A stretch of DNA of 64,000 nt from Opitutaceae bacterium (GTDB lineage Bacteria; Verrucomicrobiota; Verrucomicrobiia; Opitutales; Opitutaceae): NCBI GenBank assembly GCA_035545515.1, contig DASZYH010000234.1, forward strand, positions 3,020 to 67,019, written 5' to 3'. The notes under the pieces were generated by a model. That model was not told the origin of the DNA, made no database searches, and was given only the letters and a program-made list of their open reading frames with translations. The position numbers and the translations under genes are program-made. This document shows positions 474 through 11,274 of this stretch, piece after piece (position 1 is the first letter of the stretch; each line of letters begins with the position of its first letter).

Positions 474-614
474 GCCGCGGGCCTCCCCGGGCCAGCCCGC
501 CGCTGATTGGTCGCCCGTTCCGAGCGGAATGGGGGCGGCGCGGAAGTTTGCGTTGACGCGGCTGCGTGAATGGCTGACCCCGTCGGTAGCATTTGCTACC
601 TACCAACTTCCCGG

Positions 615-1706
615 ATGCCCCGTTCCCACAACTTCTCGGGCGGTCCTGGCGCCCTGCCCGATTCCGTCTTGGAGGAGACTCAAGCCGCGATTCGCCAGGC
701 GCCCGGTACTGCATTGTCCCTTCTCGGGCTCAGCCACCGCTCACCGTGGTTCGACTCGGTCATCAACGAGGCGGAAGCGCATTTTCGGGCGTTGCTTAAT
801 CTTCCGTCGGATTACCACGTCCTTTTCCTCCAGGGCGGAAGCACCCTGCAGTTTGCGCAAATCCCGATGACCCTGCTGAGGTCCGGCGGCGCCGCGGCGG
901 ACTATCTCCACACCGGGTACTGGAGCGGGAAGTCGCTGCCCGAGGCGCAGCGGCAGGGACCGACTCGGATCGTCTGGAGCGGCGAGGGGCAGGGATTCCG
1001 CCGGCTGCCGAAGGACGAGGAACTCCCGTTTTGCGGTGAAGCGCCGTACCTCCACTACGTTTCGAACGAGACGGTCGAGGGACTGCAGTTTCATCGGATC
1101 CTCGGACGCGACGATGTCTGCCGCATCTGCGACATGTCGTCGGATTTCCTGAGCCGACCGATCGAGGTCTCGCGTTTCGGGCTGATCTACGCGCACGCCC
1201 AGAAAAATCTCGGGCCGTCGGGCGTCACGGTCGTGATCGTGCGCGACGACATCGTGCGCCAGGTGCCGGACGGGCTGCCCTCGATGCTCGACTACCGGTG
1301 CCACGTGGGGGCGCGCAGTGTCTACAACACGCCGCCCGTGTTCGCAATCTACGTCACGATGCTGGTCGCGCGCTGGCTGCGCCACGAGATCGGCGGGCTG
1401 GAGCGGATGGGCGGGCTGAACGCGGCGAAAGCGGCGCGGTTGTATGCGGCGATCGATGGCAGCGGTGGCTATTATCGGGCGCGAGCGGCGGCGCCGGATC
1501 GCTCGCAGATGAACGTGGTGTTCAACCTGCCGACGGCCGCCGACGATGCGCGTTTCCTCCGCGTGGCGGAGGCCGCGGGGTTCTATGGTCTGGAGGGACA
1601 CCGGACGCTCGGCGGAATCCGGGCGTCGATCTACAACGCCGTCACGCCCGAGTCGGTTGACGCACTGATCGGGTTCATGCGCGATTTCCAGGGCCGGGAG
1701 GGTTGA
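615..1706 (+). CDS. serC: Phosphoserine aminotransferase (SerC-type class V PLP enzyme)
   Basis: NFSGGPG, SHRS, FLQGG, DMSS, AQKNLGPSG (PLP Lys), YNTPP, GHR..GGIRASIYNA; start taken at ATG 615 (570 possible). Confidence 0.9.
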   Translation: MPRSHNFSGGPGALPDSVLEETQAAIRQAPGTALSLLGLSHRSPWFDSVINEAEAHFRALLNLPSDYHVLFLQGGSTLQFAQIPMTLLRSGGAAADYLHTGYWSGKSLPEAQRQGPTRIVWSGEGQGFRRLPKDEELPFCGEAPYLHYVSNETVEGLQFHRILGRDDVCRICDMSSDFLSRPIEVSRFGLIYAHAQKNLGPSGVTVVIVRDDIVRQVPDGLPSMLDYRCHVGARSVYNTPPVFAIYVTMLVARWLRHEIGGLERMGGLNAAKAARLYAAIDGSGGYYRARAAAPDRSQMNVVFNLPTAADDARFLRVAEAAGFYGLEGHRTLGGIRASIYNAVTPESVDALIGFMRDFQGREG

Positions 1707-1710
1707 TCCG

Positions 1711-2592
1711 ATGTTCGCCTCCAACTACGCCGCCAATTCCGGTTTTCGGGAAACACCCTGGCCGCCGCTCCGGAATGCCGTGCTCGGTTATCTCGAACAG
1801 GCCCGGCCGCATGCGTGCTGGGGGCACGGCGAAGTGGACATTACCGATGCGCTTGGCCGCTTGAAGGACTGCCAGCGCGAACTGCGAATCGCCGTTTCGC
1901 TCCACGCCGTCATCCTGCACGCGCTTGCCCGGGCGGCGGTGGAACAGCCCGGCGTGATGACCTATCGCCACGGCCGCAAGCTCGTCACGTTCGAGGAGGC
2001 CGACGTTTCCACGACGATCGATCGTCGCATCGGCAGTCATCGGATCGCGGCCGTCTATTGCGTCCGCGGGGCGCAGCGAAAGTCGCTCGCGCGGCTGAAC
2101 TGGGAATTGCGTGAGGCGATCAACCAGCCGTTGCCGCCGGATCCGGCGATCCACTGGCGGCGACGCTTTGCGAAGCTTCCGGCATTCCTTCGGCCGCTGG
2201 TGAACCGGATGGTGACACGGAATCCCCACTGGGTCCGTCGCCTGTACGGCACGATCGGCCTCACGAACCTTCAGAGCCACGGGCTCAACCGTCCGTTCTG
2301 GGGATTTCCTCCGACGGTGTGCACCCTGACGCTTGCGGTCGGGACGGTGGTCGACCGGCTCGCGCTGGATCAGGCCGGCCGGCCAGTCGCGCGGAAACAC
2401 CTTTGCCTGGTCGGCGCCGCCGATCACGCCGTGATCGACGGGATGGCGCTATCGCGTTTCGTGTACCGCTTTATCCAACTCCTCGAGCCGGGGACCGTCC
2501 TCGACAGCGCCTTTGTCGACGAGACCCGCCGAATGATGGCGTCGGATCCGAAAACGGCCGGTTTCGCCGCGACCCGGGAGGTCGAGAAATGA
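1711..2592 (+). CDS. Stand-alone 2-oxoacid dehydrogenase E2-type / CAT-fold acyltransferase catalytic domain
   Basis: C-terminal DHAVIDG (HxxxDG) motif, GTIGLTNL segment; no lipoyl or E3-binding domain. Confidence 0.75.
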   Translation: MFASNYAANSGFRETPWPPLRNAVLGYLEQARPHACWGHGEVDITDALGRLKDCQRELRIAVSLHAVILHALARAAVEQPGVMTYRHGRKLVTFEEADVSTTIDRRIGSHRIAAVYCVRGAQRKSLARLNWELREAINQPLPPDPAIHWRRRFAKLPAFLRPLVNRMVTRNPHWVRRLYGTIGLTNLQSHGLNRPFWGFPPTVCTLTLAVGTVVDRLALDQAGRPVARKHLCLVGAADHAVIDGMALSRFVYRFIQLLEPGTVLDSAFVDETRRMMASDPKTAGFAATREVEK

Positions 2593-3938
2593 CGGCCACG
2601 CGTCCGCTTCCCCGCGCGCCGGGACACTGGCTGCTGGGCAACGCGCACGCGATGCGCGACCGCCCGCACACCTTCGTGGCGGAAATCGGCCACGCCAACG
2701 GCGGGTTGGCGCAGCTCCGGATCCTGCATCGACGGATGATCGCCGTGACGGGGCCCGACCTGATCCGCCAGGTGCTCATCACGCGGCACGACCGGTACGA
2801 ACGCAGCTTCCACTACCGCACCGCGCAACTCTCGGTCGGCAAGGGATTGCTGACCACGGATGGCCCCGTCTGGAAGGTGCGCCGGCGTCAGGTTCAGCCG
2901 GCATTCCGACCCGAGGCGCTGCAGCGTCTCGTGCCCGCCGTTCACGGCGCCGCTGGCGAGATGTTTGCCCGCTGGGATCAAAAGGTCGCCGCCGGCGAAC
3001 CCGTGCCGCTGCTGGAGGAAATGCAGACGTTCGCGCTGACCGTGATGTGCCGCGCGCTCCTGTCCGTCAGCATCGACTCGGCGGAAGCGCGGCGGTTCGG
3101 CGAGGCCGTTCGCAGCAGCCTTTACCTTGTCCGGCGCCGCAACACGTCGCTGTGTCCGATGCCGCGCTGGGTGCCGGATCGGACGAACCGCGCGCTGCGC
3201 GAGACCTACGATGTCCTCGACGCCTACGTCGCGCTGCACCTGCGGCCGCGGCGGGAGGGAAGGGAGCCGCCGAAGGCCGACATCGCGCAGGCGCTCCTCG
3301 ATGCGCGCGATCCGGAGACGGGCGAGCCGCTGTCGTGGCAGGCGTTGCGCGATGAGACGAAGACGCTGTTCACCGCCGGATTTGAAACCAGTGCGACGAT
3401 GCTCGCGTGGGCGCTCCACTCGCTGTCGCACCACCCGGCGGTGGCGGCCGCGTGGCGGGCCGAGATCGATGATGTGCTCAGCGGCCGGCCGGCTACGTGG
3501 GACGATCTCCCCCGGCTGGTCGTGACGGACCGAATCGTGCAGGAAACGCTCCGACTGTATCCGCCCGTCTATACGCTCGGTCGGGTCTGCGTGGAGGACG
3601 ATGAGCTGGGCGGCTGTCGGATTTCGCGCGGCAGCACGCTCCTGCTGTCGGTTTACGGCGCGCACCGTGATCCGGCGTTTTGGACGGACCCCGCGCGATT
3701 TGATCCGGACCGTTTTGCGCCGGGCCGGGAATGGGCGCGGCATGCGTTCCTGCCGTTTGCCCTCGGGAAGCACACCTGCGTCGGCAACAATTTCGCCGTC
3801 GCGGAGGCCGTGCTGGGCCTGGCCACGATCGGACAGCGGTACCGCATCGAACCGACGGTGGATTACCAGGTGCCGATCCGGCCCCAGGTGACGCTGGTGC
3901 CGGCCCGCGAAATTCCGGTCCGGTTTGTCCGGCGATGA
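2589..3938 (+). CDS. Cytochrome P450
   Basis: I-helix AGFETS, ETLR (ExxR), FDPDRF, PFALGKHTCVG heme-Cys; ATGA overlap with upstream gene. Confidence 0.95.
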   Translation: MTATRPLPRAPGHWLLGNAHAMRDRPHTFVAEIGHANGGLAQLRILHRRMIAVTGPDLIRQVLITRHDRYERSFHYRTAQLSVGKGLLTTDGPVWKVRRRQVQPAFRPEALQRLVPAVHGAAGEMFARWDQKVAAGEPVPLLEEMQTFALTVMCRALLSVSIDSAEARRFGEAVRSSLYLVRRRNTSLCPMPRWVPDRTNRALRETYDVLDAYVALHLRPRREGREPPKADIAQALLDARDPETGEPLSWQALRDETKTLFTAGFETSATMLAWALHSLSHHPAVAAAWRAEIDDVLSGRPATWDDLPRLVVTDRIVQETLRLYPPVYTLGRVCVEDDELGGCRISRGSTLLLSVYGAHRDPAFWTDPARFDPDRFAPGREWARHAFLPFALGKHTCVGNNFAVAEAVLGLATIGQRYRIEPTVDYQVPIRPQVTLVPAREIPVRFVRR

Positions 3939-4510
3939 CGACGATACGGCGCGTGACCCGGGAGCTCCGCTTGTCCGAGCCGGCGGAGATCGACGGCTAC
4001 GAAGCGGTGTTTTATGCGGCGTTCGAGCAGGCCCGCCATAATCGGCTCGTGCGTTGGCTGTGGGACTGGGACCACGCGCGGAGGCGCCTGCGGACGCGAA
4101 TCCCGTATTCCGATCAGCGCATCTGGGGAATGCAGAGCGAGTCGGGAGGGCTCGCCGGCGGGATCGCGGTGAACGTCGCGCTGCGAGAGTTGCAGGCGGC
4201 GGCGTACGAATTTGTTTTGCCCGCCGAACTCGCCGCCATCCGCGACGCCGGCCGGCTCTGTGAGTTCCTGACCCTGTTTTCCGCGCGCGAGCAGTCGATG
4301 CGGCGGATGGCTTCGCTCTGGCGCGAGGTTTTTGGCGACCTGCGGTCCGCTGGATTCACGCATGCGGTGGCGACAACGTCTCCCAAGGTCATGCCCCTCT
4401 ACCGCTGGGCGGGTGCGCATCCGATCGGCGAGACACAGGTTCAGGGCGAGACACGAATTTTTCTCGCGTTCGATCTTCTGCACACTCGGAGATTATATGC
4501 AAATAACTGA
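3935..4510 (+). CDS. Putative GNAT-fold acyltransferase (acyl-HSL synthase / N-acyl amino acid synthase-like size)
   Basis: ATGA overlap with the P450; 191 aa; C-terminal ATTSPKVMPLYRWAG resembles GNAT motif B; family call tentative. Confidence 0.45.
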   Translation: MTTIRRVTRELRLSEPAEIDGYEAVFYAAFEQARHNRLVRWLWDWDHARRRLRTRIPYSDQRIWGMQSESGGLAGGIAVNVALRELQAAAYEFVLPAELAAIRDAGRLCEFLTLFSAREQSMRRMASLWREVFGDLRSAGFTHAVATTSPKVMPLYRWAGAHPIGETQVQGETRIFLAFDLLHTRRLYANN

Positions 4511-4658
4511 ATAATAGTTAGATGCGTTTTATTCAAAAACCCGAACTTTTTTTGAGCGTTTTGCAGATGACCCCGTCTATCTCCGCGTAGTCAGCACTGT
4601 CCGCAAGGACGGTGAATGTTTGTAGTTCTTACGGTTTGCTTGGTGTTAGGTCACACGG

Positions 4659-4692
4659 GCCGCTCCCCCAAAGGGAGCGGCTCTTGTGTTTT
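4659..4692 (+). terminator. Intrinsic terminator-like hairpin
   Basis: GCCGCTCCC-CCAAA-GGGAGCGGC followed by TCTTGTGTTTT. Confidence 0.6.
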
Positions 4693-5019
4693 GGCCCGCC
4701 GGGCGCGTCGTCGCCCGCGAGCAGGGCGGCCCACGATAACTGTCGTCGACGTCCCCGCCGTTCGCCTTCGGGATCTCGCGGTCGCGTTCACACGGCGATG
4801 CCCGCAACCTACATCCGGCATCGGTCCGTCGGTATCGAGCGGCTTACCGAACCCGAGGTGGAGAACCAGGCGCCGTGGTCATCGGGGTTTGCCGGCGCGG
4901 CGCATCCGGCCCGGCGTCGGCGTCGATCCGCCTGACGGAACTCTCGCGTCCGCCCGGAGGATCCGTCGCCGCGCGTCGCGCTTGCCGAGCCGCCAACCGT
5001 GCGTTTTGGTTGGCGGTTC

Positions 5020-5613
5020 ATGATTTCGCTGCACGAAGGGAAGGGCACCCGGACGAAGAAACCGCCCGAACGGGCGTTCACGGTCCGGTTGTCGGTGGTC
5101 GGCTGCCATCCGAAGATCTGGCGCCGGCTCGTCGTCCGCGAATCGATGTGGCTCTCACGCCTGCACGACAGCATCCAGATCGCGTTCGACTGGTTCGATT
5201 ACCAGACCCATGCCTTCAATCTCGACGATCTCCGGTTCGGCAACCCGCTGAAACGCGACGACCTCACGATCGAGGATGACCGCGATGTGACGCTGGCGGA
5301 TCTCGATCTCGAACATCGGGAGCGGTTCACCTACGGTTATCATTTCGGTGAGGGCTGGCAGGTTGAACTCAAGGTCGAGAAAACCGGGCCGGTCGAAAAG
5401 GGCGCCCATTATCCCGCCTGCGTCGCCGGCGAGCGTGCCGGTCCGCCCGAGGATTGCGGCGGTCTCGAGGCGTTTCACGACATGCTCGCCTGCATCAAGG
5501 AACCGCATACGGACCTCGGGCGCGAGTGGATCGAATGGCTCGGCCCGGATTACGATGCCGATCGGTGCGATCTCGAGAAAATCAACAAGGCGCTGAAAAA
5601 GCTGGGGAAATAG
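5020..5613 (+). CDS. Plasmid pRiA4b ORF-3 family protein
   Basis: IWRRLVV...LSRLHDSIQIAFDW, YGYHFGEGW, GERAGPPEDCGG. Confidence 0.85.
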   Translation: MISLHEGKGTRTKKPPERAFTVRLSVVGCHPKIWRRLVVRESMWLSRLHDSIQIAFDWFDYQTHAFNLDDLRFGNPLKRDDLTIEDDRDVTLADLDLEHRERFTYGYHFGEGWQVELKVEKTGPVEKGAHYPACVAGERAGPPEDCGGLEAFHDMLACIKEPHTDLGREWIEWLGPDYDADRCDLEKINKALKKLGK

Positions 5614-6042: not shown

Positions 6043-6190
6043 TCGCGCGCGGCGAAGATGGGGCTCTGCTCGTCGGCCGGTCAATTAACGTGCTGCATCC
6101 TAACCGCTAAGCCTTGCGGCGCACCGGAATCAGACTGGAAGATTTGCATTGCCGTGGGGATGATCCTCAGTGCGAAGCTTCGCTTTTCCC

Positions 6191-8563
6191 ATGCGTCGGA
6201 TCTGCCTCCTCCTGACGATCGCCGGCGTGGTGGTCGTTTTCCTTTGCCGGCACGCCCTGCAAACCCGCTCCGGCAAGCCTGATGAAGGCGGCTCCATTCA
6301 CCGGGCGGTTGCGCGGACGGTGGTCGCACTGGCATCCACGAAGACGCCGGCCGTCCCGGCCGGAGGGCTGCTCGCGTTCGCCGCGCCGGCATCCGCCGCG
6401 GCTCTCGATGTGGCGCTGCCGGCCCCGACTCGCGTCATCCATTATGTCCGCGTCGACCGCCGGCTGATCGAATCCAAGGCGTCGCCTTTTTGGACCCGGG
6501 CGGGTCGGCTCGAACTGCCCCGACCCGATGGTGGCACGTACACGGTGGTGATCGACGACAGCGTGATGCTGGGCCCCGATCGGTTCACGAGCACGGGCCA
6601 CATTGAAGGCGAGCAGCCGAGCCGGGTCGTGTTGGCCTACAACCGCGGGTATCTCAGCGGATCGGTCGAGACGGCTGGGTATGAATATGCGCTTCGGCCC
6701 GCGACGGACACGCTTTCGCAGTACTACCAGGTCGACCCGGCGATGGTCGGCAACTGCGGCGGGGCGATTCATCCGCCGATCGACGCCGCCACGGTCGCGG
6801 CCGTGGCCGCGCATAAACAACGGCAAGCCGAGCTTGCTTCATCGGCGGCGCCCGCCGGCGCGCCCGCGACCGCCGCCGCGGTTTCGCCGTCCGGCGTGGT
6901 GGTCGACGTGATGATGCTCTACACGCAGGCGGTGAAGCCGACCATGACCGGTGATGCGCGGGTGGCGGCGCTGCAAAGCGAGTTCGATGCGGCGATTGCG
7001 AAGGTGAACGCCGAACTCTCCGCCAGCCAGGTCAGCGCCCGTGTCCGCCTCGTGAAGATTGCCCAAACCCAGTACAACGCCGACGGTCCCGTCACGAATG
7101 CGGTCGCGAACTTTCAGTCCGACGCCCTCACGGCGTTGTATACGACCAGCGACGGCAACATGGATGAGATCCATGCGCTGCGAGACCAGGCCGGCGCGGA
7201 CGTCGTCGTGCTGGCCCTCAACCGGTCCGACACGGCGAGCATCGGCTTGAGCTTCGTCCTCGACACCCCGGCGCTCGTCGAAGCGTCGGCCGCCTCCTAC
7301 AACCCGCTCTATGCGTTTTCGGTCGTGCAATATTCGACGATTGCCGGCACGGACGTCGTGCCGCATGAACTCGGCCACGTGTTCGGCTGCGCGCACGCGC
7401 GTGGCGACCCGGGTGCGACCGGCACGAAGGACGGCGCCTACACGTACAGCTACGGCTATCGCTTCTACGGCGCCGACGGTCGGCAGTATCACGACATCAT
7501 GGCGTATTCACCTGGCACGCCGCTGAGCTACTATTCCAATCCCGACCTCACCGTTCCCGCGCCGGTCAATGCGCCGATTGGAATTGCGCCGGGCCAGCCG
7601 GGGGAGGCCGACTGCGCGTTGACGATCGACCAGGATGCGTTCGAGGTGGCATCATATCGCCTGCAAACCCAGGCCGCGCCGGCCGGCACGCTGGTGAATG
7701 TGTCGACCCGGGCGTACGTCGGAACCGGGAACCAGGTTTTGATCGGGGGCTTCATCATCGACGGCGCACAGTCGAAGCGCGTGCTCATCCGGGCTGCCGG
7801 CCCTGCGCTCGCGGGATATGGCGTGACCGACGCGCTGTCGGCGCCGGTGCTGGACGTGTATTCAGGTGCCAATGTCATCGCCCACAACGCCGGGTGGAGC
7901 TCACAGACCGGCGCCGACACCGTCGCGGCGGTCTCCAATCAGGTCGGGGCCTTCGCCTTTGCCGCCGGGAGCGGCGATGACGCCGTCCTCACGACGCTGG
8001 CCCCAGGCGCGTACACCGCGATCGTGCAGGGTGCGTCCGGCAGTTCCGGGTCCGGATTGGTGGAGGTGTACGATGTCGATCGGACGGGCAACAAGATCAT
8101 CAATCTCTCGACGCGCGGATACTCCGACATCGGCAAACCGATGATCGGTGGATTCGTCGTCAACGGCGAAGCCGGCACGACGAAACGCGTGCTGATCCGC
8201 GTCCGGGGCCCCACGCTCAACCGCGACTTCGGCATCACCGAGGCGATGGATGATCCAATGCTGGAACTGCACGACGCGGCGGGGGATCTCCTGATCAAGA
8301 ACGATGACTGGAGCTCCGGCGACACCGCGGGAGTGATCAATCCGACGAACGATTTCAGCCCGGCCGTGAAAACCTACAGCGAGCAGGAAATCTCCGCGAC
8401 TGGACTGGCCCCGGCCAACCGACGCGAGCCGTGTGTCCTGGTGGATCTGGCGCCCGGCGCCTATTCGGCGGTGGTGTTGCCATTCCAGGACCTTACTGCG
8501 ACGCCGCCGGAACCCGCCGCGCCGGGCGTGGGCATCGTCGAGGTTTACGAAATTGCCCAGTGA
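6191..8563 (+). CDS. Secreted M12/reprolysin-like zinc metallopeptidase with two C-terminal 'NxSTR' domains
   Basis: N-terminal hydrophobic anchor; HELGHVFGCAH (HExxHxxGxxH) plus Met-turn DIMAY; repeats NVSTR...EVYDV and NLSTR...EVYEI. Confidence 0.85.
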   Translation: MRRICLLLTIAGVVVVFLCRHALQTRSGKPDEGGSIHRAVARTVVALASTKTPAVPAGGLLAFAAPASAAALDVALPAPTRVIHYVRVDRRLIESKASPFWTRAGRLELPRPDGGTYTVVIDDSVMLGPDRFTSTGHIEGEQPSRVVLAYNRGYLSGSVETAGYEYALRPATDTLSQYYQVDPAMVGNCGGAIHPPIDAATVAAVAAHKQRQAELASSAAPAGAPATAAAVSPSGVVVDVMMLYTQAVKPTMTGDARVAALQSEFDAAIAKVNAELSASQVSARVRLVKIAQTQYNADGPVTNAVANFQSDALTALYTTSDGNMDEIHALRDQAGADVVVLALNRSDTASIGLSFVLDTPALVEASAASYNPLYAFSVVQYSTIAGTDVVPHELGHVFGCAHARGDPGATGTKDGAYTYSYGYRFYGADGRQYHDIMAYSPGTPLSYYSNPDLTVPAPVNAPIGIAPGQPGEADCALTIDQDAFEVASYRLQTQAAPAGTLVNVSTRAYVGTGNQVLIGGFIIDGAQSKRVLIRAAGPALAGYGVTDALSAPVLDVYSGANVIAHNAGWSSQTGADTVAAVSNQVGAFAFAAGSGDDAVLTTLAPGAYTAIVQGASGSSGSGLVEVYDVDRTGNKIINLSTRGYSDIGKPMIGGFVVNGEAGTTKRVLIRVRGPTLNRDFGITEAMDDPMLELHDAAGDLLIKNDDWSSGDTAGVINPTNDFSPAVKTYSEQEISATGLAPANRREPCVLVDLAPGAYSAVVLPFQDLTATPPEPAAPGVGIVEVYEIAQ

Positions 8564-8636: not shown

Positions 8637-9434
8637 ATGGATAACGTCGCAGCACCTTCCCGGCCGGTGGCAGCCTCCCCTTGGAGCGACCTCGTTCTTC
8701 CCAAGGAACACGGCAGCTGGTCGCTTGCCCTCGAGCCCGTCGCGCTGGGGATGATTTCCGCGCCATCGTGGGCCGGCCTCGCGCTCTCGGTCGCGACGGT
8801 GGCGGCGTTTTTCACCCGGCGACCGCTGCGAATCGGCGTCACCGAACAGCGTGCGGCGCGCCGGCTCGCGGCGCGGCGGGCCGCCGTCGCCTGTGGAGCC
8901 GTGGTTCTGGCCGGGTGGTGTGGAGCCCTTTTCGGTGCGGGAACCGGTTGGTGGCCGTGGCTGCTTCCGTCGGCCGCCGCCGGGGCGTTTTTCCTCTTTT
9001 TCGACCTCCAGCAGTCCGGTCGCGAGCAGCACGCCGAGATTGCCGGGGCCACCGCTTTCGCCTGGCTGCCCGCCGTCTTTGCGGCGCTGGCTGGCTGGCC
9101 GGCCCGGTCGGCCGCGGCACTGGGTGTCATCATGCTCGTGCGGGCGGTTCCGACGGTGCTCACCGTGCGGGCGTGGTTGCGCGGCCGGAAGACCGGTGTC
9201 CGGCGGCCCCTGCTGCCACTTGCGGCTGCAGTGCTCGCCGCGATCGTCGGGCTCGAACTCGCGCGCAGCGGACTCGCTCCGTGGATCGCGGCTGTCCTCC
9301 TGGTGGCGCTTGCGCTGCGGTCCATCGCACTGCTGCTGTTTTCCCCCGCCACATTGCGGGCATCAACGCTCGGCATGATCGAGGCCGGCGTCGGCGCTGT
9401 GTTCGTCATTGCCGTCGCTTTCGCGTGGCGGTGA
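8637..9434 (+). CDS. YwiC-like membrane protein
   Basis: LPKEHGSW motif followed by multiple TM helices. Confidence 0.75.
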   Translation: MDNVAAPSRPVAASPWSDLVLPKEHGSWSLALEPVALGMISAPSWAGLALSVATVAAFFTRRPLRIGVTEQRAARRLAARRAAVACGAVVLAGWCGALFGAGTGWWPWLLPSAAAGAFFLFFDLQQSGREQHAEIAGATAFAWLPAVFAALAGWPARSAAALGVIMLVRAVPTVLTVRAWLRGRKTGVRRPLLPLAAAVLAAIVGLELARSGLAPWIAAVLLVALALRSIALLLFSPATLRASTLGMIEAGVGAVFVIAVAFAWR

Positions 9435-9697
9435 ACGGGACCGCGGTATCGGCACGGTGATCGTCGACGTCCCATGCGAGCGCCTCGCATTCGGTTAATG
9501 CATAGCAAGTAACACGACTTTAGGGCCGACGCATTGTCGGCAGACGGCTCGCGCAGGCGAAGCCGGCGGCCCGTTTCGCAAGAACTGCACGGCGTTTCGC
9601 AAACCTGGCACAGCGGCAGGGTGCCGTCGTGGGCGATGATAAGCGTAGATGACCCACACATCGTCCCACGCTAATGCCGTCGTGTACTCGGATCCGT

Positions 9698-9711
9698 TTG
9701 ATCCGCGTCAA
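9698..9711 (+). promoter_or_regulatory. FNR/Dnr-type box upstream of nirK
   Basis: TTGAT-CCGC-GTCAA, one mismatch to TTGAT-N4-ATCAA, ~60 nt before nirK ATG. Confidence 0.8.
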
Positions 9712-9765
9712 GGTGCGTTTGGCCGGGCGGTGGCATCGTGTGGGGCACGATCAGCCATTCCCGTC

Positions 9766-11274
9766 ATGAAGATTCCAACCCGCCCACACTTCGTCCCGGC
9801 TTCGCTCGCCTTGCTCGCGGCCGTCCTGAGCTGCGCGTTGCCGCTCCGCGCGCAGGAAAATACCGCGATCGCGTCGTCCGGCGCGGCGCCGCTGGCCGCC
9901 GACCTCCCGGTTGAGACGGAGGTTCTGGTGCCGCCGCCGGCCGTGCCGCCCCCAATCGGTCGCCGGCATCCGGCCAAGGTTATTGTGCAGCTCGAGGTGC
10001 GCGAGGTAACGAAACGCCTCGCTGATGGTGCCGAATACACCTTCTGGACTTTCGGGGGGGACGTCCCCGGACGGTTCATTCGTGTCCGCGAGGGCGACGT
10101 GGTCGAGTTGCACCTCAACAACAACCCGAGCTCGAAGATGCCGCACAACATCGATCTGCACGCGGTGACGGGTCCGGGCGGCGGTGCGGCGTCGACCTTC
10201 ACGGCCCCGGGGCATTCATCGGTGTTCACGTTCACCGCGTTGCGCGCCGGCCTGTACGTATATCACTGCGCAACTGCTCCGGTGCCGATGCACGTGGCGA
10301 ACGGCATGTATGGCATGATCCTGGTCGAGCCGCCGGAGGGCCTGCCGCCGGTCGACCACGAGTACTACGTGATGCAGGGCGAAATCTACACCCAGGGCGC
10401 CACGGGCGACACCGGTCTCCAGGTTTTCGACAACACGAAGGCGGTCGATGAGCGGCCGACCTACGTCGTCTTCAACGGCTCCGTCGGTTCGCTGACCGGC
10501 GACCACGCCCTGAAGGCGAAGGTCGGTGAGCGGATCCGGATCTTCTTCGGCGATGGCGGGCCGAACCTCACGTCCTCGTTCCATATCATTGGCGAAATCT
10601 TCGACCGCGTTTACCCCGAGGGCGCGATGTCACCGGTGATGCAAAACGTGCAGACCACGCTCGTTCCCGATGGGGGATCGACGATCGTCGAATTCACGCC
10701 GCAGGTGCCCGGCACCTATACCATCGTCGATCATTCCCTCACGCGGGCGTTCAACAAGGGCGCGATCGCGATGCTCAACGTGACCGGCCCCGCCAACCCG
10801 GTGGTCTATTCCGGCAAACAGGCCGACGAGCTCTACGACGGCACGACGGCGATCGCTTCCGCGGCGCCGGCCACTCCGGCGCCGGCACCGAGCGTGACGA
10901 CGGCCGCCGCGCCGGCGAAGACGGGCCCGTTGACGAAGGAGGAGCGGATCGCGCGCGGCAAACAGGTGTTCGATTCGGTCTGTTTTGCCTGCCACCAAAT
11001 GAACGGGCAGGGGCTGCCCGGCGTGTTCCCGCCGCTCGCCGGCTCGGATTTCCTCAAGGCTGACCGCTCCCGTGCGATTCGTATCCCGGTGAAGGGGCTG
11101 ACCGGCCCCGTGACCGTCAACGGCAAGACCTACAACAACGTCATGCCGCCGCAGACGCAGCTCGATGACGCGCAGATCGCGGACGTGCTGACGTACGTGA
11201 TGAATTCGTGGGGCAACGACGTCGGCACGGTCTCGGCCGACGAGGTGAAGCAGGCCCGCGAGACGGGAATGTAA
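9766..11274 (+). CDS. nirK: Copper-containing nitrite reductase (AniA-like) fused to a C-terminal cytochrome c
   Basis: [40 protein letters not shown]; Ala/Pro linker; CFACH heme motif and distal VMPP. Confidence 0.95.

Follow-up and report, generated by a model that had tools for sequence, protein, structure and literature searches.

The question raised by this locus is why serC, the gene for phosphoserine aminotransferase (PSAT), is joined to genes for an acyltransferase, a cytochrome P450 and a GNAT-like protein, and what the four enzymes might make together. The locus occupies positions 615–4510 of a 64,000-nucleotide (nt) stretch of contig DASZYH010000234.1 from an Opitutaceae bacterium; this whole stretch is called the window, and coordinates refer to it unless another locus is named. 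An original prediction, drawn from the letters of the window, had described a translationally coupled operon of a SerC paralog, a free E2-type acyltransferase, a P450 and a GNAT-like protein, in which serC is a dedicated copy and the product is an oxidised N/O-acylated amino compound. Our analysis demonstrates that the four genes are one coupled operon. Judged from sequence comparison, its serC is a dedicated, acquired copy and not the housekeeping gene of the organism. For the operon as a whole we tentatively favour, at somewhat less than an even chance, a small pathway free of nonribosomal peptide synthetases (NRPS) and polyketide synthases (PKS), which would lead in four steps to an oxidised, acylated, serine- or phosphoserine-based acyloxyacyl lipoamino acid.

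The open reading frame (ORF) list of the window and a direct reading of the sequence place all four genes on the + strand. They encode an accessory SerC of the NF009112-type clade (615–1706), a stand-alone acyltransferase of the E2/chloramphenicol acetyltransferase (CAT) fold, here called E2L (1711–2592), a P450 (2589–3938), and a FeeM/LuxI-like GNAT, here called NASL, which is a putative N-acyl amino acid synthase (3935–4510). Specifically, the TGA stop of serC (1704–1706) is followed by a 4-nt gap (tccg, 1707–1710) and the ATG of the E2L gene at 1711, while ATGA stop/start overlaps join the E2L gene to the P450 gene (2589–2592) and the P450 gene to the GNAT gene (3935–3938). The predicted coupling was thus confirmed, and 4-nt overlaps are present throughout the cassette loci, including those of unrelated genomes (L005, L007, L008, L010, L035 and L051); the coupling is therefore a conserved trait, not an accident of this one contig. 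The unit is compact, with four genes only and no NRPS or PKS, as predicted. Upstream of serC lies a non-coding leader (474–614, + strand), in which a promoter scan found no sigma-70-like promoter, and an Rfam search of leader and tail returned no family at threshold, neither riboswitch nor known RNA. A role as a defence system was considered and rejected, with 0 PADLOC matches for the four proteins.

SerC belongs to the class-V aminotransferase (Aminotran_5)/SerC family. It scores 420.3 bits against NF003764 (cut-off 253) and 562.5 bits against NF009112, just below the cut-off of 563, which its relatives in L035 and L036 pass. It aligns over residues 3–360 with the solved Bacillus PSAT 1W3U (348.7 bits, E 3.7e-103). 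A start at 615 (MPRSHNF...) fits the N-termini of solved PSATs, and a start at 570 is also possible. Across 139 aligned SerCs, housekeeping copies included, residues H41, R42, K197, N238, T239, H329, R330 and R336 are invariant; K197 is the pyridoxal-phosphate (PLP) lysine, and the His and Arg positions form the pocket for the phosphate and carboxylate of the substrate. Nothing in the sequence of the cassette SerC indicates an altered substrate.

E2L (293 amino acids) matches PF00198 (2-oxoacid_dh catalytic domain) at 35 bits against a cut-off of 23, over the C-terminal part only. This catalytic-domain match is its sole one; as it lacks lipoyl and subunit-binding domains, E2L is to be classed as an acyltransferase of E2 fold, not as an E2 component. 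Ser63 and the motif D238-H239-x3-D243-G244 (DHxxxDG) are invariant across 19 diverse homologs. The best Foldseek matches of its AlphaFold2 (AF2) model (pLDDT 87) are E2 catalytic cores (E 1e-14), and the E2L profile searched against PDB sequences likewise ranks E2 cores first, with CAT weaker. Motif and fold both bear out the predicted free E2-type enzyme. No E1 or E3 partner gene lies near it, its neighbours being the SerC and P450 genes. Public data contain about 70 clusters of its homologs, and the sampled loci of this family adjoin a P450 gene, mostly with a GNAT gene too. We excluded from the cassette count the distant homologs of Chloroflexota, at about 30% identity, and of Rhodospirillaceae, at 40%, whose gene neighbourhoods are unrelated.

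The third protein is a P450, as had been read from the sequence, with a PF00067 match of 266.8 bits (above cut-off), the ExxR motif (ETLR) and the heme-thiolate motif FxxGxxxCxG (FALGKHTCVG). Its nearest solved structures are CYP170A1, CYP102-type enzymes, CYP97A3, CYP3A, CYP46 and CYP4B1, which makes it CYP170/CYP102/CYP97/CYP3-4-like and places it in a group acting on lipophilic substrates. There is no gene for a redox partner within the cassette. In three loci of Chthonomonadaceae type (L020, L021 and L022), a second, divergent P450 gene, about 30% identical, lies convergently just downstream of the cassette (about 8800–10100, minus strand).

NASL (191 amino acids) was modelled by AF2 with a pLDDT of 92, and the six best Foldseek matches of the model are all FeeM chains (E 5e-8 to 3e-7, TM 0.61–0.66), led by FeeM 2g0b (E 5e-8, TM 0.65). 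These are followed by the acyl-homoserine lactone (AHL) synthases TofI, BjaI and LasI, and then by generic GNATs. The structure prediction that had been suggested for the GNAT-like ORF was thus run and agrees with that label; it points to NASL as a GNAT of the FeeM/LuxI branch. Searching PDB sequences with the NASL-family profile gave no significant match, and the relationship was seen by fold search only; Pfam Autoind_synth (PF00765) matched 0 of 20 family members. Within the family, which counts 341 representatives at 50% clustering, E110 is invariant. It lies in model strand 108–116 and may be the counterpart of the catalytic Glu reported for FeeM. FeeM-type enzymes use long-chain acyl carrier protein (ACP) thioesters, that is, acyl-ACP (PMC8762209). 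Some members of the GNAT family (P0237, P0238, P0273 and P0258) carry C-terminal fusions, either a helical region of about 200 amino acids or a domain of about 450 amino acids, for which no Pfam or PDB sequence match was found. A PLP-enzyme-like motif in P0258 was an unsupported impression by eye and was dropped.

We searched for related loci with 13 sequences and found the set, in conserved gene order, in at least three phyla. In Verrucomicrobiota metagenome-assembled genomes (MAGs; L003, L005, L012–L015), SerC, E2L, P450 and NASL are collinear, with the L012 contig ending within the P450 gene. All four genes are likewise present in Candidatus Competibacteraceae (L007/L016), where ThrH follows 24 nt downstream, in a member of the Chthonomonadaceae of Armatimonadota (L021), and in unclassified MAGs (L017, L020, L022, L035 and L051, the last with an additional GNAT). 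Other loci lack serC: alphaproteobacterial L008/L018 hold E2L, P450 and NASL; Ferrovibrio, also of Alphaproteobacteria (L019), holds E2L and P450 only; and in a further lineage (L010:3150–8795) P450, NASL, a DevB-family membrane-fusion protein, FtsX, an ABC ATPase and E2L are encoded in one coupled series. The conserved core is therefore E2L, P450 and GNAT, with serC auxiliary, because the core occurs without it in L008/L018 and L010; in most lineages, a dedicated serC accompanies the core. The exporter genes embedded in the L010 operon suggest that the product is exported. Regulators, LuxR-type receptors included, do not recur beside the cassette in the loci examined.

This pattern fits an accessory, horizontally acquired and mobile cassette, a conclusion we hold to be very probable. 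Among 250 additional high-quality genomes sampled from 122 genera of the phylum, 0 had the E2L gene, with 9 first-look candidates scored per genome. In the order, only one other genome (G054) has this serC; there it adjoins E2L, P450 and GNAT and is apparently frameshifted. Two cassettes show signs of decay: the P450 gene of L003/L004:6635–7983 is split over two frames in two independent assemblies, and the serC of G054:C68:76685–77772 (L034:6689–7773) is split, with in-frame stops. In the Competibacteraceae locus, the ThrH gene (L007:4654–5361), which scores 336 bits where the cut-off is 133 and encodes a bifunctional phosphoserine phosphatase/homoserine phosphotransferase, precedes the housekeeping genes leuS, lptE and holA.

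The cassette SerCs also stand apart by descent. A tree built from 139 SerCs unites every cassette copy in a single, long-stemmed clade (100% support) and places the canonical second copies outside it. Whole-genome counts differ among lineages: the cassette copy stands alone in cassette-bearing Verrucomicrobiota and G006; it is joined by a canonical copy of higher score in Competibacteraceae, Chthonomonadaceae, G009 and G011; and a SerC of this type is missing altogether from the alphaproteobacterial cassette genomes. In every tested genome with a canonical SerC, the member of the accessory clade is a second copy. Proteins from Beta- and Gammaproteobacteria form a sub-clade within the accessory clade. 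In Salinisphaera sp. LB1 (L036:3841–6131) and a Rhodocyclaceae MAG (L037:3814–6089), whose genomes each also carry a canonical SerC, the NF009112-type SerC gene overlaps an upstream gene by 4 nt; the latter encodes about 390 amino acids with weak RimK/ATP-grasp similarity, and the pair forms an uncharacterised two-gene module. On two Competibacteraceae-type contigs (L049/L050:4562–7131), an accessory-clade SerC gene shares 4 nt with the end of the gene for a 480-amino-acid NRPS condensation-domain protein, which itself comes after a megasynthetase of more than 3000 amino acids. From these arrangements, the NF009112-type clade looks like a set of accessory PSATs repeatedly recruited beside amide-bond-forming enzymes. 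The proteins named "phosphoserine transaminase" under NCBIfam NF009112 appear to be accessory copies tied to secondary metabolism, and the name is probably wrong.

The genomic setting at the window's own locus leads to the same view of serC. The order kdsB-carA-KamA is kept in congeners, where the KamA (lysine 2,3-aminomutase) orthologs of eight out of eight sampled members are 82–88% identical. In one congener (G018), a PRiA4_ORF3-family gene directly follows KamA, about 550 nt apart; here, the four cassette genes (about 4 kb) sit exactly between the two. Nucleotide homology to G018 stops within KamA at position 414 and is back at 4552–4694 with 84% identity. From this break and resumption, the insert runs roughly from 474 to 4551, with the leader at its left end and an AT-rich right end (4511–4551), and contains four genes only. 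Its GC content is 0.665 compared with 0.655 for the window, giving no compositional signal. A mobile-element vehicle was looked for and rejected, with no integrase or transposase within the insert of about 4 kb and no GC deviation. KamA was also considered as a fifth member and set aside, as it is native, is syntenic in cassette-free congeners and does not lie beside the cassette in other lineages.

Could serC nevertheless be the housekeeping serine gene of the organism, placed by coincidence beside an unrelated three-gene module? It is the sole canonical SerC-type gene in a genome that is 99.8% complete, it has a standard PSAT active site, and the housekeeping genes kdsB and carA are nearby. 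But a SerC of this type was found at E ≤ 1e-20 in 0 of 36 other species of the genus (all first-look candidates scored), though the adjacent KamA is conserved; and serC lies inside the insert, in a serC-to-GNAT order that recurs in three phyla, where the cassette copy is the second one and the tree separates it from housekeeping copies. The E2L gene is also missing from the 36 congeners (0/36), while full-length SerA (>600 bits) is present in 8 of 8 sampled members. It is because these congeners lack both SerC and E2L, while KamA is conserved and SerA present, that we regard serC as acquired; the housekeeping explanation is highly improbable and effectively excluded. The dedicated copy that the original prediction proposed thus holds up, since the gene travels with the others, is absent from the congeners and has its own clade. 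The label "paralog" does not, as a search for a second serC found the cassette copy alone in this genome. The prediction had also reasoned that a sole serC, in a set not co-occurring elsewhere, would speak against it; the gene is indeed the only serC, and the set does co-occur elsewhere. For annotation, the lesson is that the only serC of a genome need not be the housekeeping one. Within the genus (G000 and G015–G050), the SerA of the eight sampled members is bona fide, yet no recognisable SerC-type PSAT occurs in the 36 congeners; with SerA present and SerC absent, the genus would use another, unrecognised aminotransferase for this step.

The source genome is a soil MAG with a depth of about 4–5x per run, and the independent Logan contigs are broken close to either end of the insert, so the adjacency might in principle be an artefact of assembly or binning. 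However, short independent contigs from three runs span the KamA/serC junction, and both flanks are syntenic with congeners. Additionally, an independent JGI contig (L052), from a sister species in another sample and metagenome, is collinear from carA to P450, with amino-acid identities of 87% for carA, 92% for KamA, 82% for SerC, 85% for E2L and 77% for P450. This collinearity, together with the junction contigs, indicates that the arrangement is real and common to the sister species, and an artefact is extremely improbable and effectively excluded.

In the pathway that we tentatively favour, the cassette SerC would convert 3-phosphohydroxypyruvate, supplied by the SerA of the host, to O-phospho-L-serine, and so provide a raised or private pool of this amino acid or, once the phosphate is removed, of serine. 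The GNAT would then N-acylate the amino acid from fatty acyl-ACP or acyl-coenzyme A (acyl-CoA), in the manner of FeeM-type synthases, and the P450 would hydroxylate the fatty acyl chain. Finally, E2L, through its His/Asp dyad, would acylate either the hydroxyl made by the P450 or that of the serine side chain with a second acyl group, drawn from acyl-CoA. The outcome would be a lipoamino acid of acyloxyacyl type, assembled by a logic like that of ornithine lipid (OlsB, then OlsA), and would reside in the envelope or be exported. The supporting context consists of the ThrH gene downstream in L007, the DevB/FtsX/ABC exporter genes in L010, and the coupling of the SerC clade to ATP-grasp-like and NRPS genes. 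The predicted oxidised, N/O-acylated product is consistent with the enzyme folds, and we put it forward as a conditional assignment.

Several observations weigh against this pathway. The core stands without serC in L008/L018 and L010, and in L019 with E2L and P450 only, so the supply of phosphoserine is not obligatory; and the adjacency of ThrH is seen in one lineage only, Competibacteraceae. NASL misses the gathering cut-off of PF21926 (FeeM; 25.8 bits against 27), and just 2 of 20 NASL-family members reach this family at E ≤ 0.01. The order of the steps is a guess, and E2L could be a CoA/ACP transacylase instead of an O-acyltransferase, E2s being thiol-to-thiol enzymes. At the level of the locus, positions 4521–4545 at the right end are uncovered by independent contigs in this MAG, and no RNA runs holding the stretch were found.

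A bolder version of the proposal takes O-phospho-L-serine, not serine, as the building block, supplied by NF009112-type SerCs to the GNAT cassette, to ATP-grasp ligases and to NRPS condensation enzymes alike, so that the cassette would make an N-(acyloxy)acyl-phosphoserine lipid or a derivative formed by loss of the phosphate. It is suggested by the fact that serine is abundant in any cell, yet the clade is repeatedly coupled to amide-forming enzymes. We consider this version rather unlikely; if true, the product would be a glycerol-free, anionic phospho-lipoamino acid, a bacterial class not yet described.

Other readings of the same four enzymes deserve weighing against the acyloxyacyl pathway. 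The doubt about E2L can be extended to a scheme in which this enzyme is a thiol-to-thiol transacylase, exchanging acyl groups between acyl-CoA and ACP to feed the GNAT, and the product is a singly acylated, P450-hydroxylated N-acyl amino acid. True E2 domains shift acyl groups between the thiols of dihydrolipoamide and CoA, in its fold and its Ser/His/Asp residues E2L matches E2 and not CAT in particular, and FeeM-type enzymes require acyl-ACP donors. There is, however, no ACP gene in the cassette, CAT of the same superfamily O-acylates hydroxyls, and E2L is strictly accompanied by a hydroxylating P450, which hints at the creation of a hydroxyl acceptor; we therefore hold this scheme to be unlikely. 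The closeness of the NASL model to TofI, BjaI and LasI, which are among its best structural matches, raises the possibility of a diffusible signal, in which a LuxI-like GNAT would act on O-phosphoserine, with phosphate as leaving group in place of S-adenosylmethionine (SAM), and P450 and E2L would tailor the product. A small, mobile and patchily distributed cassette would suit such a role, as would a dedicated supply of phosphoserine for leaving-group chemistry. But FeeM remains the best structural match, Autoind_synth does not match, and no LuxR-type receptor or regulator recurs beside the cassette; moreover, we know of no precedent for lactonisation or elimination of phosphoserine by a GNAT, and a signal seems fairly improbable to us.

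The direction of the pathway could also be reversed, given that aminotransferases are reversible and that CYP102-type P450s oxidise N-acyl amino acids and AHLs. The cassette would then be a catabolic or detoxifying module, for example one that oxidises and re-acylates exogenous acyl-amino compounds or AHLs, with SerC deaminating. Against this, no hydrolase, amidase or uptake transporter recurs with the cassette, the transport genes embedded in L010 are those of an exporter and not an importer, and the SerC clade is otherwise linked to biosynthetic, amide-forming enzymes; this explanation is accordingly very unlikely.

Compared with known systems, the acyloxyacyl pathway lies closest to those of the N-acyl amino acid synthases, which give rise to membrane lipids (ornithine and glycine lipids) and to bioactive signals (N-acyl tyrosines and commendamide-type ligands). 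The fee cluster from environmental DNA (eDNA) and the FeeM structure 2G0B are reportedly the work of Brady and Clardy. Our cassette shares with that cluster a small GNAT of about 190 amino acids, whose predicted fold is closest to FeeM, and a short NRPS-free operon with tailoring enzymes. It differs in that NASL falls below the Pfam cut-off and in its partners, a P450, a free E2L and a PSAT, which to our knowledge are not part of the fee cluster; the amino-acid acceptor of NASL is probably not tyrosine. With OlsB/OlsA, and with GlsB/GlsA of glycine lipids, the cassette shares the proposed logic only, that is, a GNAT-like N-acylation followed by esterification of the hydroxyl of the first chain. 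The OlsB family (PF13444) and PlsC-type OlsA were undetected in the four proteins. The Ols hydroxyl derives from 3-hydroxyacyl-ACP, whereas here the P450 would create it, and the second acyltransferase has the E2/CAT fold. LuxI synthases belong to the same GNAT sub-branch, ranking just under FeeM in the fold search, but NASL shows no Autoind_synth match, no LuxR partner and no sign of SAM use. E2L shares the fold, the DHxxxDG motif and the conserved Ser with E2 cores and CAT; unlike E2 cores, it is without a lipoyl or peripheral-subunit-binding domain and E1/E3 genes, is about 18–20% identical to them, and forms a family of its own. The cassette SerC resembles housekeeping SerC/PdxF as a full-length PSAT with all catalytic and phosphate-binding residues kept, and is set apart by its distinct NF009112-type clade and by its coupling to genes of secondary-metabolism type.

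A full-text literature search found no description of this gene set, in line with the original prediction, which did not recognise the combination as a described cluster, and we see in the cassette a variant form of the pathways built on N-acyl amino acid synthases. Its significance lies in a compact four-gene unit, moving between phyla, that unites a putative synthase of N-acyl amino acids, a P450, a free E2-fold acyltransferase and a PSAT of its own. The cassette is rare, mobile and small enough for direct expression, and points to an uncharacterised product class.

The native flanks lie outside the cassette. On the left, the 3' part of the KamA/AblA-type lysine 2,3-aminomutase gene (3–473, + strand) matches LAM_C and TIGR03820. 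On the right, the PRiA4_ORF3-family gene (4999–5613, + strand) matches PF07929 at 170 bits, and its congener orthologs are 79–83% identical. The interval between them (window 474–4999; congener loci L044, L045 and L047) is a variable spot in the genus: in two congeners (G017 and G021) it holds about 8 kb of other DNA and genes, some of whose proteins resemble the C-terminal repeats of a 797-amino-acid ORF at window 6170–8563. Upstream of the PRiA4-like gene, the segment of renewed homology to G018 (4552–4694, + strand) is a native conserved intergenic element of about 140 nt, surrounded by intergenic DNA that is unalignable. It matches no Rfam family at threshold and contains two hairpins, the second of which (4657–4683) is terminator-like with a T-rich tail; it could represent either a small RNA or some form of leader.

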